Below are positions 1 through 4,187 of a stretch of DNA of 64,000 nt, piece after piece. The stretch comes from Clostridia bacterium (GTDB lineage Bacteria; Bacillota; Clostridia; Christensenellales; DTU072). Position numbers and translations under genes: made by a program. The number at the start of each line of letters is the position of its first letter. Position 1 is the first letter of the stretch. Below the pieces are notes generated by a model. That model was given only the letters and a program-made list of their open reading frames with translations, was not told where the DNA came from and searched no databases. Location: the NCBI GenBank assembly GCA_017476265.1, contig JAFVAC010000002.1, positions 2,344 to 66,343 of the forward strand. The letters run 5' to 3'.

Positions 1-46
1 GGACAGGGAGACCGAGGCGGTCACCTTGTTTACATAGGAGGGAATT

Positions 47-478
47 ATGCCGACAAAACCATCATCTTGGGGAATACAAGAGTACGTCCCGGCAGGGAAC
101 GGAGACGCGAGCGGAGAGTACGCGGACGGGGAAGGAAGTAACAGGCGCTTTACGGCGTTTAAGAAACCGGAAAATAGATATTCGGAACAGCAGAAGGCAA
201 GAGTAGATCGTTTTCAAAGTGTGCTCAATAACGATACAGTTCGAGGTTATGTCAAAGGGACGTTCAAGCACTCGCTCTTAGACGATGGTCGTGTTTCGTA
301 TAGTTACGAAACGAAAAAAACCTATGTAAGAGAACATGTTGGGAAAATGCTTTCTCCCGATAAAGCTGATCTTATTGAGCGAACAGAGATAAACTCCGGA
401 TATTTTGGAAAAGACGGTTTGTGGATAAAAAACAAACCGGAAACGACAGAAAAAATAATCAAGAGGGGAAAACGATAG
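47..478 (+). CDS. hypothetical protein, phage/polymorphic-toxin-associated module
   Basis: 143-aa ORF with an AGGAGGG Shine-Dalgarno (SD) sequence upstream. The N-terminus carries YVPAGNGDASGEY, which resembles the PAG..GGxF junction motifs of phage MuF-type proteins. An upstream ORF in the same frame ends at TAG 35-37. No family was recognised for the remaining sequence. Confidence 0.5.
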   Translation: MPTKPSSWGIQEYVPAGNGDASGEYADGEGSNRRFTAFKKPENRYSEQQKARVDRFQSVLNNDTVRGYVKGTFKHSLLDDGRVSYSYETKKTYVREHVGKMLSPDKADLIERTEINSGYFGKDGLWIKNKPETTEKIIKRGKR

Positions 479-479
479 T

Positions 480-1244
480 ATGTGGGACGAAAGCAAACAC
501 CCGAGAGACGATGACGGCAAGTTTACCGACGGGAACGGCACGACCGGATCAAAGGAAAAGATGTTCAGGAGCGGGCGTTTTGCGAAGGAAACCGTAGAAG
601 ACGGACTCACCCACGGAAAAAGGAAGGATAAACAATTTTTTAATCGACAGAAGCCGTTGGGACATCATACCCCTTTACCGCCTTGTCCCGGCTACATCGA
701 TGGCGTAAAACGCAGAGAAGAAGGTATGACACATGAGGAAGCAGACCGTGGAAGTGTAAACCCGAAATACGGAACAAACGATGCGTACAAGCGGAATTGT
801 CAAATATGTGTTGCCACGTATATAGCAAGGCGTAGAGGGTATGACGTTGAGGCACTTCCTTTCATTGAAAACAATAAAGCAATGGAAGAGTATGCGGTAG
901 ACCCGCTGAAATTCTACAAAAAGAGTTTAGAGAAGCCAATAGTTTTTGAAAAAAAGGAAAACGGTGTATCGGACTTTGATTATTTGAAGAAAAGATGCTA
1001 TAATGGAAGTATCGTAGCTCTCAACTTTAATTGGAAAAGTCGTTCAGACAAACACATTATTGTTGCAGAGAATATAGACGGTAAAATCCGGTTATACGAT
1101 CCGCAGAATAATAAAGCAATAGAAAGCGAAAGTGGGATAAAGAAATATCTTTCCAAAACGAACCACTTGCATATTGCCGATCTGACAAAAGCCGACATTG
1201 ATGAGAGAGTGGCGAATAAGACAATGAGGAGAAGGGAGAGATGA
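480..1244 (+). CDS. putative papain-like (Cys/His) toxin domain protein with N-terminal KHPRD..GKF junction motif
   Basis: The protein starts MWDESKHPRDDDGKFTDGNG, a motif typical of junctions in phage SPP1-gp7/MuF polymorphic toxins. The C-terminal part has NC107QIC, then KH192IIV and LYD207PQN in the order of a Cys-His-Asp triad. It resembles Tox-PL/glutamine-deamidase-type domains. Confidence 0.55.
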   Translation: MWDESKHPRDDDGKFTDGNGTTGSKEKMFRSGRFAKETVEDGLTHGKRKDKQFFNRQKPLGHHTPLPPCPGYIDGVKRREEGMTHEEADRGSVNPKYGTNDAYKRNCQICVATYIARRRGYDVEALPFIENNKAMEEYAVDPLKFYKKSLEKPIVFEKKENGVSDFDYLKKRCYNGSIVALNFNWKSRSDKHIIVAENIDGKIRLYDPQNNKAIESESGIKKYLSKTNHLHIADLTKADIDERVANKTMRRRER

Positions 1245-1474
1245 AAGACACGGTAGAAAAGATTATGCAAGAGAAAGGAGCGGTCGATTATATAAAAAGG
1301 GACCATAAATGGAAAGGATATAACATCTACGACCCCATCTTTAACAGACCGGCAGGTTGCTACGGACTACCGGAATATGTTTTAGAAGATGCAGAAGGGA
1401 ATGCCCATAGAGCGTCTTACGACGAAACAATGGAGATTATAGACTTCCTAATTGAAAAAGAAGGGAAGGCTTAA
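1241..1474 (+). CDS. putative cognate immunity protein (hypothetical 77 aa)
   Basis: The start overlaps the toxin stop codon as ATGA. An SD (GGAGAAGGGAGAG) lies upstream. The protein is small and acidic, and a terminator follows it. Confidence 0.45.
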   Translation: MKDTVEKIMQEKGAVDYIKRDHKWKGYNIYDPIFNRPAGCYGLPEYVLEDAEGNAHRASYDETMEIIDFLIEKEGKA

Positions 1475-1500
1475 TTCGGACAAATAAAAGTAGTCAATAG

Positions 1501-1526
1501 AAAAGGCACCTTCGGGTGCTTTTTTC
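1501..1526 (+). terminator. rho-independent terminator
   Basis: AAAAGGCACC-TTCG-GGTGCTTTTTTC hairpin with a T-tract. Confidence 0.65.
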
Positions 1527-1539
1527 GTGGAGAGAGATT

Positions 1540-1623
1540 ATGACTGTAGCGTTATGGATATCTATGTCAATGAGCGTTGCGGCGATCATCATCACGATAG
1601 TAAATCTCATAGTAAACAGATAG
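1540..1623 (+). CDS. 27-aa hydrophobic small peptide (MTVALWISMSMSVAAIIITIVNLIVNR)
   Basis: ATG 1540 sits 4 nt after GGAGAGAG. The peptide forms a single predicted TM helix with a basic C-terminus. The TAG stop at 1621-1623 directly abuts a terminator. The ORF is below the 60-aa ORF-track cutoff. Confidence 0.4.
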   Translation: MTVALWISMSMSVAAIIITIVNLIVNR

Positions 1624-1650
1624 AAAGGCACGGGAAACCGTGCTTTTTTC
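1624..1650 (+). terminator. rho-independent terminator
   Basis: AAAGGCACGG-GAAA-CCGTGCTTTTTTC. Confidence 0.65.
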
Positions 1651-1737
1651 TTGTACTTTGGAGGAGAATATGCTCTCTACTCTTGACAACCAAAAATTTA
1701 AACAGAAAATAAAGCTTATAGAATTGACTAAGCAATT

Positions 1738-1768
1738 AGAAAGAGAGCCGTGCGACTCTCTTTCTTTT
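1738..1768 (+). terminator. terminator-like hairpin
   Basis: Perfect 10-bp stem AGAAAGAGAG / CTCTCTTTCT with an 8-nt loop, followed by TTT. Confidence 0.4.
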
Positions 1769-1966
1769 ACTCATCGGATAAGAGACGATGCGGTCTCGTC
1801 TTCCGTATTTGTGACCCGGAAATCACATCTCTCCGCAAGGGGGAAGGGAGAGGCTGTGTCGAGCGACTTGTTGTTGTAAACTTGACAGCAAGGTTCAAGA
1901 AGCTTAGTATCGGATAGATTGAAGTGATAGTCGAATCAATTATGAGTAAAAACTTATTGCCAATAA

Positions 1967-1995
1967 TTGACATTGACAAAAACACGACGTATAAT
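1967..1995 (+). promoter_or_regulatory. sigma-A type promoter
   Basis: TTGACA (1967-1972), 17-nt spacer, TATAAT (1990-1995). Confidence 0.55.
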
Positions 1996-2007
1996 AGGGT
2001 CGAACAG

Positions 2008-2080
2008 AAAACAAACGGGGTGCCGAAAGGCTGAGATCATACCCGCTGAACCTGTAAGGTAATGCTTGCGCAGGGATTTT
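2008..2080 (+). promoter_or_regulatory. TPP (THI-box) riboswitch aptamer
   Basis: Contains the conserved GGGGTGCC..GGCTGAGA..ACCC..TGAACCTG..TAATGC..GCAGGGA elements. The aptamer boundaries are approximate. Confidence 0.85.
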
Positions 2081-2089
2081 GATTTTTTC

Positions 2090-2114
2090 CTACCGTGCAA
2101 GCGGTAGTTTTTTT
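2090..2114 (+). terminator. riboswitch expression-platform terminator
   Basis: CTACCG-TGCAAG-CGGTAG followed by TTTTTTT, immediately upstream of the thiT SD. Confidence 0.7.
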
Positions 2115-2131
2115 CATTAAAGGAGGTTTTT

Positions 2132-3265
2132 ATGTTAAGTGCTTCTAAGTTTGAACAATACTTTTTCAACTTCAAAAGTACAACCACGACTGCAATATCG
2201 GTGATGCTGTGGATATTCTTCGCATTGTTGATATGTTTCGTCGTACTGTCTCTTACGATGAAAGACAAGAGCAAAGTGATCAACAAAGTGTTTGCCATCT
2301 TGGGGACTTTGTACGTCGCTACCGCTATTGTTTTGTTCGCCGTGCTGAAAGGCATAGAAAACAACGAAGACGGCGGCGTCAATGCTTTGATTTTGTACCC
2401 GATGATCACTCTTGCTATCGTTTTGATCGCATCGGCATTGATCGCGGTCTTTGTCCCCAATAAGATCGTCCGAATCCTATCTTATGCTCTGTCCGGCGGC
2501 GCATTGGTCGCGGTGATCGTGTGTCTTTCGGTCTACTATGCATCGGGAGAGGCGAGTGAATTTAACTGGATAGACCAAGAGAACGTAAACTCCGTAGCTT
2601 TGTGGATAACTTCGGTGGTCCTCATTTTAGTCATCGGAGGGCTTACTTTCCTCGATAGAAGAAAACTGAAGTTCGATACCAAGTCATTGACATACGCCGG
2701 GATCACCCTTGCGCTTGCGTTTGCTTTGTCGTACATTCGTATCATCAGAATGCCGATGGGGGGAGGGATCACTCTTGCGTCCCTGCTGCCGATCATGCTA
2801 TACTCTTATATGTTCGGGACGAAAAAGGGCGTGTTGGTCGGCGTGTTGTACGGTGTATTGCAAGCGATCCAGGATCCGTGGATATTGCATCCGGCACAGT
2901 TCTTACTGGACTATCCGGTGGCTTTTGCCGGAGTGGGACTCGTCGGATTGATGCGCGATCAAAAGCGTGAATGGGATCCGAAGTTGAGTTTTGCGGTAGG
3001 TGCGATTGTCGCCGCATTCGCGAGACTTTTGGCACACTTCTTATCCGGCGCATTCGCTTTCGGCGTTTATGCCGGCGATTGGAATATGACCTCGCCATAT
3101 TTGTATAGCATCGCGTATAATGCGGCTTACGTTCTGCCGGACGCTGCGCTTGCGATCATCGCCGGGATCCTTTTGATGCTCTCGAAGACCTTTACGGGAT
3201 TGGTCTTAAAAACGGAAGATAAGCCTATCGACAATACGGCAACAATATCGCAAGGAGAAGAATAA
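2132..3265 (+). CDS. thiT: thiamine transporter ThiT (ECF S-component-like) with about 180-aa N-terminal multi-TM extension
   Basis: The C-terminal half (about aa 185-350: LALAFALSYIRI..GGGITLASLLPIMLYSY..FLLDYPVAFAGVGL..LAHFLSG) resembles the ThiT/YuaJ family. The gene is under a TPP riboswitch. The N-terminal half has about five extra hydrophobic helices. Confidence 0.7.
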   Translation: MLSASKFEQYFFNFKSTTTTAISVMLWIFFALLICFVVLSLTMKDKSKVINKVFAILGTLYVATAIVLFAVLKGIENNEDGGVNALILYPMITLAIVLIASALIAVFVPNKIVRILSYALSGGALVAVIVCLSVYYASGEASEFNWIDQENVNSVALWITSVVLILVIGGLTFLDRRKLKFDTKSLTYAGITLALAFALSYIRIIRMPMGGGITLASLLPIMLYSYMFGTKKGVLVGVLYGVLQAIQDPWILHPAQFLLDYPVAFAGVGLVGLMRDQKREWDPKLSFAVGAIVAAFARLLAHFLSGAFAFGVYAGDWNMTSPYLYSIAYNAAYVLPDAALAIIAGILLMLSKTFTGLVLKTEDKPIDNTATISQGEE

Positions 3266-3275
3266 CAACGTAAGA

Positions 3276-4187
3276 ATGAAAAGGCTGACCGTCAAAAATC
3301 TAAACGTCAAGTACCGATACGGTGCGCTAGCCGTATCGGACTTGACTTTTTTTGCGGAAAAAGGCGTGACCTGTATTCTCGGAGCGGAAGAGAGCGGAAA
3401 GACTTCTCTTTTGAAAGCGATAGCCGGGTTGATCAAGCCGATCTCCGGGGAAGTATATTTTGATGAGACGCCGTCGGAGCAGCTTCGTTTGAGAGACAGG
3501 AACGTCTGCCTGATCTATGAAGACGGTGGTTTTTTTGAGCGAAAGACAGCATTGTATAATCTGCAATATCCGCTGAAAGTGAGAAAAACGACGGAAATGG
3601 ATATGGCGCAAGCGATCGAAGCCGCGACCGAGATCGTAGGGTTCAAACCGGAAGATCTGAATACTCCCGTCAACAAACTCACGAAAGAAAAGAGAGTTCT
3701 ATTGGGGTATGCAAGGGCGTTTTTACGGAAAGCGGACGTATATCTGATCGACGACGTAATCAAAGACGCGACGGATAGAGACGCATTGTTTTTACAGATA
3801 AAACCACTTGTGGAAAGGCTGGCGGATAATTCGATCGTACTATATGCGACGGACAGAGCGTCGGAGTGCGAGGCGTTAGGGGGGAAGAAGATCGTATTTT
3901 TGAACTACGGTATTCCGATCCGACAAGGGACTTATGCGGAGATCAAAGAGAACCCGACTGATCTAATGACGGTGGAAAAGTTCTTACCCGAAGCCGAGCG
4001 GGAAGGAACGGTCCTTTTTACGGACAAAAACGGTATTTATATTGAAGCATTCGGTAAAAAGTCCTATTTAAGTCAGGAAAAACTGCTGAGCGATATTTTT
4101 CTGAACAAGGAAGTCGTCGTCGTCAAAACGGGAGACGGGATAAAAGTCTTCGACCAAAAAAGCGAGCGATTGATCTATTTCGGTTGA
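3276..4187 (+). CDS. ABC ATPase-like protein with degenerate catalytic motifs and a C-terminal regulatory-type domain
   Basis: Walker A is present (GAEESGKTS). The Q-loop Gln is replaced (IYEDGG). The signature LSGGQ is replaced by LTKEK. Walker B reads LIDDV and lacks the catalytic Glu. The switch His is absent (YATDR). The gene starts 10 nt after thiT. Confidence 0.7.
   Translation: MKRLTVKNLNVKYRYGALAVSDLTFFAEKGVTCILGAEESGKTSLLKAIAGLIKPISGEVYFDETPSEQLRLRDRNVCLIYEDGGFFERKTALYNLQYPLKVRKTTEMDMAQAIEAATEIVGFKPEDLNTPVNKLTKEKRVLLGYARAFLRKADVYLIDDVIKDATDRDALFLQIKPLVERLADNSIVLYATDRASECEALGGKKIVFLNYGIPIRQGTYAEIKENPTDLMTVEKFLPEAEREGTVLFTDKNGIYIEAFGKKSYLSQEKLLSDIFLNKEVVVVKTGDGIKVFDQKSERLIYFG

Follow-up and report, generated by a model that had tools for sequence, protein, structure and literature searches.

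The left edge of the 64,000-nucleotide stretch of DNA from a Clostridia bacterium analyzed here (hereafter, the window) probably carries a phage-head effector-immunity cassette that has been kept in a prophage remnant. We predict that this cassette is a tightly coupled operon of four genes, encoding a 143-aa protein with a conserved N-terminal motif (the PAG leader), a 254-aa toxin, a 77-aa antidote and a 27-aa membrane peptide. The DNA from position 1 to ~1880 of the window would represent the right-hand part of a ~3.8-kb decayed prophage (C7:424 to ~4220 in the coordinates of contig C7) that is flanked by the host genes pgi and thiT. The phage origin of the element, already proposed in a reading made without database searches (hereafter, the sequence-only reading), is borne out by remnants of MuF2, scaffold and tail genes that match the metagenomic contigs L103 and L080.

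All features of the cassette lie on the forward strand. The window opens with the 3' end (1..37) of an 88-aa ORF (C7:2114-2380) that appears to be the N-terminal piece of a phage tail protein truncated at the cassette insertion. The sequence-only reading had pointed out that this ORF shares its frame with the next one; the ORF indeed stops at the TAG at 35-37, but the shared frame is a coincidence; since the upstream ORF derives from an unrelated tail gene, read-through into the 143-aa ORF was dismissed. The 143-aa gene (47..478), which encodes the PAG leader and a C-terminal domain of ~100 aa, has its own GGAGG ribosome-binding site at 37-41. The toxin gene (480..1244) consists of the segment coding for a second leader (480-542), a linker predicted to be disordered (to ~686) and the portion for the papain-fold domain (687-1244), and is followed by the gene for the 77-aa antidote candidate (1241..1474), which overlaps the toxin stop by 4 nt as ATGA and is thus probably translationally coupled to it. 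When the sequence was re-read, the coordinates of these three ORFs and the residues of their motifs proved to be as first claimed. Downstream of the antidote candidate, inspection of the sequence and a terminator scan revealed a terminator-like hairpin, GGCACCTTCGGGTGCC, followed by a T-run (1501..1524), which is kept in L103 and in the prophage remnant L084. Next comes the ORF for the 27-aa single-helix hydrophobic peptide MTVALWISMSMSVAAIIITIVNLIVNR (1540..1623), with its own GGAGAGAG ribosome-binding site; this ORF is intact, with conservative substitutions, in phage L103 and in L084, which suggests that the peptide gene travels with the cassette. A 27-nt terminator element with the hairpin GGCACGGGAAACCGTGCC and a T-run (1623..1649) has a 100% identical copy 3' of the 85-aa gene of the island's other cassette (C7:1428-1454) and a related copy in L103. 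The remnant ends on the right with a 69-aa tail-protein fragment (1670..1879), in which the tail reading frame resumes with its own ribosome-binding site and ATG.

Comparison with close homologues yields dN/dS values of 0.08 for the 254-aa toxin, 0.06 for the 77-aa protein and 0.13-0.22 for the 143-aa protein, where the comparison partners are copies in phages or other remnants. Judging from these values, the three ORFs are real genes under purifying selection, which may have acted while they were still part of a phage, not in the bacterium that now contains them. Block 479-1601, including most of the 27-aa ORF, is ~95% identical in contigs from two other metagenomes, and the left edge of this match is sharp, one base ahead of the toxin ATG.

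The sequence-only reading had tentatively assigned the C-terminal half of the 254-aa protein to the papain fold of the Tox-PL/glutamine-deamidase type, and both profile and structural comparisons point to the same assignment, namely a Tox-PL1/PF15644 papain-fold protein with a Cys-His-Asp triad. In an HMM search, residues 106-211 of the protein aligned with positions 2-113 of the 114 in the PF15644 (Gln_amidase) profile with a score of 31.4 bits (E = 4.4e-7; the curated gathering cut-off is 24.1 bits). The NC-H-DxQ signature that defines Tox-PL1, a domain for which fusion to MuF has also been described (Zhang et al. 2012, PMC3482391), is present as N106-C107 (codons at 795-800, with C107 at 798-800), H192 (1053-1055) and D207-P-Q209 (D207 at 1098-1100), and is at least 90% conserved in the alignment of homologues. 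The AF2 model has an overall pLDDT of 77.7, with values of ~80-96 for residues 60-254 (exceeding 90 in the core) and <50 for residues 15-59; residues 1-59 are predicted to be disordered. A Foldseek search of the PDB with this model, a check proposed in the sequence-only reading, retrieved papain-like structures, including YopQ (2e-6), AvrPphB, OspI, CHBP and Josephin-like proteins, as well as 9l5u, a 'papain-like cysteine protease toxin/immunity pair', and the search of BFVD produced models of 'Papain fold toxin 1' of phages (TM up to 0.63) along with minor capsid proteins of phages, at E-values of 1e-14 to 1e-9. The Pfam label 'glutamine deamidase' is itself a prediction for the PF15644 family. 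A search of 1.84 billion proteins gave 1,521 matches, in which the domain either forms the C-terminus of a 450-650-aa protein or makes up a short protein that stands alone. Profile searches detected no MuF-type domain in either the 254-aa or the 143-aa protein. Among 81 genomes of the bacterium's family, no other contains the toxin; given the bimodal G+C content of the metagenome bin, this absence carries little weight.

The 77-aa protein, singled out in the sequence-only reading for its ATGA overlap with the toxin gene, is a very good candidate for the immunity protein of the Tox-PL1 toxin, to judge from its genomic position. In 11 loci, distributed over two phyla and including MuF-fused toxins and Actinobacteria, a member of its family is encoded immediately 3' of a gene of this Tox-PL1 clade. 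The protein is 100% identical to the product of the gene that follows the toxin gene in L103, 95% identical to that in L084 and 43% identical to that in L004. Its AF2 model (pLDDT 92) has an alpha/four-strand beta/alpha fold without a significant match in the PDB (best Foldseek E-value 0.68), and the protein matches no Pfam family and no PHROG, nor any HTH or RHH domain. The locus thereby supplies an unannotated candidate immunity family for Tox-PL1 toxins.

The genes around the cassette suggest descent from a temperate, siphovirus-like phage that infected gut Clostridia and was akin to L103 and L080. A gene of the MuF family, which the sequence-only reading had thought might lie just outside the window, is present upstream as a remnant at C7:424-795; the 107-aa ORF corresponds to MuF2 residues 271-375. 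A frameshift fusion of this MuF2 stub with the upstream HPRD-leader ORF, considered in view of a 118-nt overlap of the frames, found no support, as L103 and L084 have an ordinary stop codon at this junction and then a ribosome-binding site with its ATG. The 186-aa ORF joins residues 2-156 of the scaffold protein to residues 81-158 of a 158-aa tail-side protein, a fusion produced by deletion. The 88-aa ORF is 61.5% identical to residues 1-91 of the L103 tail protein (at least 772 aa), the one protein from which its assignment to a tail gene is drawn; its similarity to the tail proteins of the more distant L101 and G001 is not significant. In a tblastn search, window positions 1619-1813 matched residues 82-143 of the same L103 protein at 55% identity. 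The tail frame resumes at 1670..1879, and therefore the cassette appears to lie inside a split tail gene. A comparable split-tail arrangement is found in L004, where an 89-aa ORF that is 47% identical to the 88-aa ORF precedes the toxin gene, followed by a terminator, a ribosome-binding site, an ATG and then MLDRLKNQKFKSQINTIELTKQ. The terminase, portal, capsid and connector genes have been deleted, along with most of MuF2 and almost the whole tail region, and two effector cassettes are intact in the island, the one upstream of the window containing a second HPRD module (a 114-aa ORF). The 114-aa and 85-aa proteins match nothing in Pfam or PHROG, and none of the island proteins has a meaningful match in NCBIfam or PADLOC.

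The assembly, a metagenome bin, contains no other structural genes similar to those of L080 and L103 and no Phage_Mu_F domain; as an indication that there is no helper phage elsewhere in the genome this is weak, because the G+C content of the bin is bimodal (44% for contig C7, against 52% for the bin on average). An independent 53.6-kb contig from this species carries the island, bordered by host genes at either end, with 99.98% identity. A clean empty insertion site was not obtained from relatives: in same-genus genomes, pgi is not upstream of thiT but faces it in convergent orientation, and no pgi was seen within the flank in the two most closely related genomes.

The native setting of the cassette genes can be seen in related phages. 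L103 encodes, in this order, the large terminase, portal, MuF2 (375 aa), toxin, antidote, scaffold, capsid and tail proteins; its toxin gene, whose product begins with MWDESKHPRD and is 92% identical to the 254-aa protein, stands as an ORF of its own, preceded by a ribosome-binding site. In L080, MuF2 is followed by a 98-aa gene, a homologue of the 143-aa gene (86% identity), a 37-aa stub with the HPRD leader, the scaffold and the capsid. Thus, in L103, L080 and L084, the cassette genes belong to the packaging/head module, beside the portal and MuF genes, and a free-standing toxin with its antidote next to MuF2 is the native arrangement in live phages. By the same comparison, WDESKHPRD is the native N-terminus of the toxin.

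Both the toxin and the 143-aa protein start with short conserved leaders behind which the C-terminal domains are swapped. The leader of the toxin, which begins with MWDESKHPRDDDGKF, conforms to WDESKHPRDxxGKF, and the exact WDESKHPRD peptide was found in 41 IMG/VR contigs. At least eight clusters defined at 50% identity consist of proteins of ~235-265 aa that open with this motif. The protein P0007 is 78% identical to the toxin over its first 49 residues and has an unrelated C-terminus, and DNA identity to the toxin gene ends at codon 20 in L080 and at codon 49 in L082. Carriers of this HPRD leader include the 254-aa toxin, P0007, the 37-aa stub of L080 and the upstream 114-aa ORF. In long phage proteins, WDESKHPRD follows portal or ADP-ribosyltransferase modules, for example behind a Phage_portal_3 domain or inside a 1,024-aa protein that contains an ADP-ribosyltransferase domain; the motif is accordingly not the specifically MuF-type junction for which it was taken in the sequence-only reading. 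It is absent from all 27 more distant Tox-PL1 proteins from named genomes, many of which are long and some of which are confirmed MuF-type fusions. Literature searches for KHPRD, and for HPRD in a phage context, retrieved no description of the motif.

The PAG leader of the 143-aa protein comprises 42 aa (MPxKPNxxGxxQEYVPAGNGDASGEY..GSN..F..FKKP, nt 47-172), with YVPAGNGDASGEY at residues 13-25. It is invariant in 18 database homologues with unrelated C-termini. In IMG/VR phages, it is fused to ADP-ribosyltransferase, Gln_amidase and weakly ATLF-like domains, always at the N-terminus and always in the head module. The earlier description of this motif as junction-like does not hold, considering that it occupies residues 13-26 in all 18 homologues and in six of six IMG/VR genes and is never internal. 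The C-terminal domain of the 143-aa protein itself has no match in Pfam, as the HMM search envisaged in the sequence-only reading showed, nor in PHROG, NCBIfam or PADLOC, and no evident antidote gene accompanies it. The two leaders could be merely conserved recombination junctions or linkers.

We propose the following explanation. In the living phage, the enzyme would be made late and held harmless by the 77-aa protein, which would bind and neutralize it; carried inside the capsid, the enzyme would enter the next cell along with the ejected DNA and might then deamidate or cleave a host protein. The short leaders would replace the covalent MuF fusion of other phages and serve as a loading or docking tag, a role in capsid loading that we regard as doubtful rather than probable. 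The broader proposal, put forward tentatively, is that WDESKHPRDxxGKF and MPxKPN..QEYVPAGNGDASGEY..FKKP are two undescribed, portable N-terminal address tags with which tailed phages of gut Firmicutes could load exchangeable effectors into capsids by docking on MuF2, portal or scaffold proteins, to be released into their next host, that the tagged free-standing effectors are the split, non-covalent counterpart of MuF-fused polymorphic toxins, and that bacteria keep the matching antidote genes of dead prophages as a shield against such phages. In the present bacterium, where the phage appears to be dead, the pair would most likely persist for protection, with the antidote shielding the cell from L103-like phages in circulation, whose toxin is identical, and/or for addiction, whereby loss of the toxin-antidote pair would be harmful.

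Several other explanations of the locus have to be considered. The Tox-PL1 protein could be a virion assembly or processing peptidase that trims head or cargo proteins, with the 77-aa protein as its inhibitor or chaperone. An assembly role for Tox-PL1 in MuF neighborhoods has been raised previously (Zhang et al. 2012, PMC3482391) and is compatible with the placement of the toxin gene in the late head operon of L103, as well as with the fact that no prohead protease family was flagged in the head modules of L103 or L080. Nevertheless, this explanation appears unlikely: unrelated domains replace Tox-PL1 behind the same leader in P0007 and in the L080 stub, which argues against an assembly peptidase because an essential maturation enzyme would not tolerate such a swap, and L080 has a complete head module, yet only the 37-aa HPRD stub. 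Moreover, the Tox-PL1 domain is also found in T6SS, T7SS and RHS toxins (PMC3482391), and toxins typically have a dedicated neutralizing partner that varies together with the enzyme. The sequence-only reading favored a fragmented array, that is, orphan or displaced C-terminal modules of a MuF toxin gene that start at internal junctions and are not expressed as such. The surrounding prophage is truly degraded, the same island holds the second HPRD module upstream, and WDESKHPRD is internal in most of the long phage ORFs that carry it. However, the toxin and 143-aa ORFs are not orphan fragments, given that an identical free-standing gene with its own ribosome-binding site follows a complete MuF2 in the intact L103; eight diverged clusters have WDESKHPRD at the N-terminus, the three ORFs are tightly coupled with dN/dS of 0.06-0.22, and the PAG leader is never internal, all of which makes displaced modules very unlikely.

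A different possibility is that the cassette now serves the host, either as an addiction or abortive-infection module or as an antidote shield with the toxin gene hitch-hiking. This possibility bears only on the present role and does not conflict with the origin and mechanism proposed above. Both cassettes have outlasted all the structural genes that lay between them and on either side, the island is fixed in this species in two independent samples, and the phage whose antidote is 100% identical is present in bovine gut metagenomes at a word depth of up to 96x. Against such a role, there is no PADLOC match to known defense systems, no regulatory antitoxin features were seen, and retention could simply reflect recent decay, so that we consider it possible but on the whole doubtful.

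MuF-type phage toxins are abundant in gut microbiomes. The locus and its live relatives add to them toxin-antidote pairs that are separate genes with only a short conserved leader; if these leaders are indeed loading tags, they would amount to a simple and transferable means of directing any protein into a phage head. The remnant is also a clean example of prophage decay around toxin-immunity cassettes, which bears on why bacteria retain such remnants.

The closest known systems are the MuF polymorphic toxins of temperate phages (Zhang et al. 2012, PMC3482391; Jamet et al. 2017, PMC5576092), including the MuF-fused 'glutamine deaminase' toxins with predicted immunity genes of Bacteroides prophages (Alexei et al. 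2024, PMC11699363). Shared with these are the Tox-PL1/PF15644 domain, the location in a head-morphogenesis module beside portal and MuF genes (seen in the relatives L103, L080 and L084, and here represented by only the MuF2 3' stub), the small (<150 aa) immunity ORF directly 3', in this case the 77-aa ORF with its position kept in 11 loci, C-terminal domain swapping and frequent survival in prophage remnants. As in polymorphic toxins generally, a constant N-terminal part is combined with unrelated, exchangeable C-terminal domains. Unlike in the MuF toxins, the toxin polypeptide contains no MuF-superfamily domain (PF04233, PF06152, MuF3, MuF4): it is encoded by a separate gene, its N-terminal part consists of only a ~20-aa motif and a linker predicted to be disordered, the neighboring gene has a leader of a second family (PAG) in the same role, and one cassette position is inside a split tail gene. 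The locus does not conform to a type II toxin-antitoxin system either, in which the operon is autoregulated by a DNA-binding antitoxin whose gene usually comes first, with the 77-aa gene located downstream and its product lacking a match to a DNA-binding domain in Pfam. Phage polyvalent and portal- or MuF-fused effectors, which have been proposed to be packaged and injected (Iyer et al. 2017, PMC5512222), resemble the present case in that WDESKHPRD also occurs between modules of long phage proteins, but here the modules are encoded by separate small genes and not joined as domains in one giant polypeptide. The internal proteins and Alt of phage T4 carry a capsid targeting sequence that is removed by the prohead protease (PMC9026906), likewise a short N-terminal peptide on unrelated small head-region proteins; the HPRD and PAG leaders have no sequence similarity to it, so the relationship is one of analogy, not membership. 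The locus is thus of a known kind, the MuF-associated polymorphic toxins, in an undescribed split, leader-tagged form.

The left edge of the window (C7:2344-66343 of a 2.0-Mb metagenome bin) was analyzed together with the adjacent sequence as locus L003 (C7:1-4500; window coordinate = L003 coordinate minus 2343). Re-reading of the sequence returned three forward-strand ORFs that match the sequence-only reading exactly, namely a 143-aa ORF (47-478), whose GGAGG ribosome-binding site overlaps the stop codon (TAG, 35-37) of the preceding ORF; a 254-aa ORF (480-1244), a putative toxin (hereafter the toxin), which starts one base past the 143-aa stop with the N-terminus MWDESKHPRDDDGKF; and a 77-aa ORF (1241-1474), the candidate antidote, joined to the toxin stop by an ATGA overlap. 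Selection, estimated by the Nei-Gojobori method from comparison with the prophage remnant L084, gives a dN/dS of 0.08 for the entire toxin (0.15 for leader and linker, 0.06 for the domain) and 0.06 for the antidote; for the 143-aa gene, compared with the related phage contig L080 and the remnant L082, the range is 0.13-0.22. A 27-aa hydrophobic, single-helix peptide is encoded between two terminator hairpins (1540-1623), with its own ribosome-binding site; since this ORF is also intact in phage L103 and remnant L084, its changes there being conservative, it can be considered a companion of the toxin-immunity cassette.

The papain fold predicted for the C-terminal half of the 254-aa protein was borne out by sequence profile, residue conservation and structure model alike. 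Residues 106-211 match Pfam PF15644 (Gln_amidase, 'Papain fold toxin 1') with 31.4 bits (cut-off 24.1), and aligning the protein with ten homologues shows conservation of at least 90% for N106, C107, H192, D207 and Q209; NC-H-DxQ is the signature that defines Tox-PL1 (Zhang et al. 2012, PMC3482391). AlphaFold2 models residues 60-254 confidently (pLDDT 76-96 in ten-residue blocks) and residues 15-59 as disordered; Foldseek matches of the model in the PDB are papain-like, including YopQ (E = 2e-6), a Josephin-like clippase, AvrPphB, MCF, a CdiA-CT, the 'papain-like cysteine protease toxin/immunity pair' 9l5u, and the deamidases OspI and CHBP. The BFVD matches (E = 1e-14 to 1e-9) include a phage 'minor capsid protein', 'Papain fold toxin 1, glutamine deamidase' and 'capsid maturation protease and MuF-like fusion protein'. 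The enzyme class and the catalytic residues are thereby established. YopQ (YopK) of Yersinia (PDB 8brf) is the closest solved structure and the sole significant PDB sequence match (profile E = 3.4e-5); it keeps the LYDP-x-N motif, has Tyr at the position of the catalytic His, and seems to be a Tox-PL1 relative that has lost catalytic activity. When 1.84 billion representatives were searched exhaustively with HMMER, 1,521 matches were obtained, many with the domain at the C-terminus of 450-650-aa proteins and many others short proteins. Among GenBank phages searched by tblastn, MuF or minor-head proteins from Bacteroides phages and from actinophages end in the Tox-PL1 domain, and the fusion of this domain to MuF in prophage remnants was observed by Zhang et al. 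2012 (PMC3482391).

In live phages, the toxin gene lies in the head module of the late operon. The 92%-identical homologue P0180 is encoded on L103, a 33.4-kb contig that is an intact phage, in the order large terminase, portal (512 aa), Phage_min_cap2 (375 aa; 'MuF2' in Jamet et al. 2017, PMC5576092), 254-aa toxin, 77-aa protein (100% identical), scaffold (208 aa), capsid (521 aa) and tail genes. In the HK97-like phage contig L009, the interval from the portal gene to the prohead-protease gene is occupied by a stand-alone 228-aa Gln_amidase and a 95-aa partner; an Ntox50 protein and a 62-aa ORF separate the small terminase gene from the large one, and a BrnT/BrnA pair separates the terminase and portal genes.

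The WDESKHPRD motif that opens the toxin had been taken for an internal junction of MuF-type proteins. It is, however, the native N-terminus in eight 50%-identity clusters (proteins of 236-266 aa), which align to the toxin from residue 1-2 and begin with MWDESKHPRD, MFDESKHPRD, MRLWDESKHPRD or a near variant, and in L103, where the toxin gene is preceded by a ribosome-binding site of its own, TAGGAG, and opens at an ATG 12 nt past the MuF2 stop. Internal positions do occur, and they are not confined to MuF proteins: the exact motif is present in 41 IMG/VR contigs, nearly always within long ORFs and at widely different positions, and among ten sampled ORFs, one has it after a Phage_portal_3 domain and another within a protein of 1,024 aa that includes an ADP-ribosyltransferase domain. 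None of 27 more distant Tox-PL1 proteins of named genomes contains it, many of these being long and two, inspected at full length (L055 and L074), being MuF-type minor-capsid fusions. On these distributions, WDESKHPRD is a widespread phage module boundary, not specific to MuF, which in the toxin's lineage marks the start of a separate gene.

Domains are exchanged behind this leader. The 205-aa homologue P0007, on L082, has residues 1-49 in common with the toxin (78% identical) and an unrelated C-terminus, and L080 has no more than a 37-aa stub, in which a short tail comes after MWDESKHPRDVDGKFTDGNGSF; the DNA identity of the window stops at toxin codon 20 with L080 and at codon 49 with L082. 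Contigs of two bovine-gut metagenomes match window positions 479-1601 at about 95%, with a sharp left edge one base 5' of the toxin ATG and different sequence upstream. A second HPRD cassette is located in the island upstream of the window (C7:809-1413, L003 coordinates), where a 114-aa ORF (C7:809-1153), combining the WDESKHPRD leader with a small C-terminal domain that has homologues in three IMG/VR contigs (L022, L044, L015), is followed by an 85-aa ORF and a 27-nt terminator element 100% identical to window 1623-1649. In the L082 remnant (1580-3317), the 143-aa gene (83% identical) and P0007 lie beside a divergent NADAR-domain gene and HTH regulators, and phage structural genes were not seen around them.

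The PAG..G.Y motif of the 143-aa protein, likewise read as an internal junction, proved to be N-terminal throughout. The first 42 residues, MPxKPNxxGxxQEYVPAGNGDASGEY..GSN..F..FKKP, are (nearly) invariant in 18 database proteins of 82-249 aa with mutually unrelated C-termini, and PAGNGDASGEY, found in six genes on five IMG/VR contigs, is always at residues 15-18. These six genes are always in the head module, downstream of the portal and before scaffold and capsid, and in L101 the leader gene follows a recognisable MuF2-like gene (Pfam PF06152). Their C-terminal domains include an ADP-ribosyltransferase (E = 5e-22), a Gln_amidase (E = 1e-10), with an 86-aa ORF downstream of its gene, and a weak ATLF-like match. 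The 86%-identical orthologue of the 143-aa gene in L080 is situated between MuF2 and scaffold; the 100-aa C-terminal domain of the 143-aa protein has no match in Pfam, PHROGs, NCBIfam or PADLOC. By its fixed N-terminal position, head-module location and swapped C-termini, PAG represents another family of N-terminal leaders, carried by exchangeable effectors of the phage head, rather than an internal junction.

The ORF directly downstream of each Tox-PL1 gene among the loci compared was extracted, and two families emerged; the pairing of enzyme and partner is conserved. The family of the 77-aa protein (alignment A3) occurs behind stand-alone HPRD toxins (window, L084, L103, L004), other stand-alone Tox-PL1 forms (L007, L009) and longer Tox-PL1 proteins (L053, 561 aa; L059, 367 aa), extends to Actinobacteria (Thermophilibacter; Coriobacteriia MAG L068), and mostly overlaps the toxin gene by 4 nt. 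This recurrence strengthens the case for the overlapping ORF as an immunity candidate; small immunity proteins have been predicted for MuF-fused glutamine deamidases in Bacteroides (Alexei et al. 2024, PMC11699363). The 77-aa protein has no Pfam family, and its model (pLDDT 92; helix, four strands, helix) has no Foldseek match in the PDB. A 366-aa ORF (L051:8597-9697) combines a domain of the immunity family, an acidic linker, the HPRD-like peptide KFNPYHDRLGRFAS and a domain with the zincin motif HESGH, joining a candidate antidote to the next effector through the junction peptide. The second, unrelated family, with the pattern ~MI..EEA...(K)tGkv..ffPPdh.ee, is found downstream of other Tox-PL1 clades (L055-L058, L062-L064, L067, L069, L071, L073, L074, L076) and behind the PAG-leader Gln_amidase gene of L100 (5529-5789), and is probably a second immunity family for this domain.

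Comparison of the remnant with L103 and L080 located a remnant of the MuF gene that had been suspected just outside the window: C7:424-795 contains only the last 105-116 codons of a MuF2 gene (52-67% identical), which begin directly after the pgi terminators without a credible start codon. A 186-aa ORF is a deletion fusion: its residues 4-132 correspond to residues 2-156 of the scaffold, its residues 109-186 to residues 81-158 of a tail-side protein of 158 aa, and about 4-5 kb, capsid gene included, have been lost between the two parts. The 88-aa ORF ending at window position 37 corresponds to residues 1-91 of a large tail protein, whose frame is back at 1619-1813 (tail residues 82-143), with a ribosome-binding site and ATG at 1670, and then ends; the cassette is therefore inside a split tail gene. 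L004, whose toxin is only 45% identical, is arranged alike: an 89-aa ORF precedes the toxin, antidote and terminator, after which the tail gene continues from a ribosome-binding site and ATG. The position is thus an inherited or recurrent cassette site. Thus, the notion of a fragmented array holds for the surrounding prophage, with its MuF2 stub, deletion fusion and split tail gene; it fails for the toxin and the 143-aa gene, which are native free-standing genes in phages.

An independent 53.6-kb contig from another sample (L105) carries the same island, 99.98% identical, between host genes (transketolase through pgi on one side, thiT through ruvABC on the other), and hence the remnant is chromosomal and stable in the species. 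Several genomes of the same genus (L086-L093, compared with window 2132-3265) have pgi downstream of thiT, convergent; here pgi is upstream of thiT on the same strand with the remnant between them, which suggests a rearrangement at the old integration site. The G+C content is bimodal across the assembly (C7, 44.1%; C7 and eleven other contigs, 41-46%; most contigs, 50-57%), and the bin may be a mixture of two organisms, so that claims on the rest of the genome and on taxonomic relatives are weak; this applies to the result that other structural genes of the L080/L103 type and a Phage_Mu_F domain were not found in the assembly.

The phage is dead in its present host. Both cassettes outlasted the deletion of all that lay between them, and a phage that is abundant in bovine gut samples encodes a 100% identical antidote, which suggests that the antidote is under selection in this host or that the host is addicted to the pair. 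Extrapolating from the literature on MuF and polyvalent proteins, the toxin would travel inside the virion and be ejected together with the DNA, and the 77-aa partner would neutralise it in the producing cell and in lysogens. The short leaders could conceivably, if on balance improbably, serve as loading or docking tags instead of a covalent MuF or portal fusion, in functional analogy with the capsid targeting sequence of phage T4 (PMC9026906).
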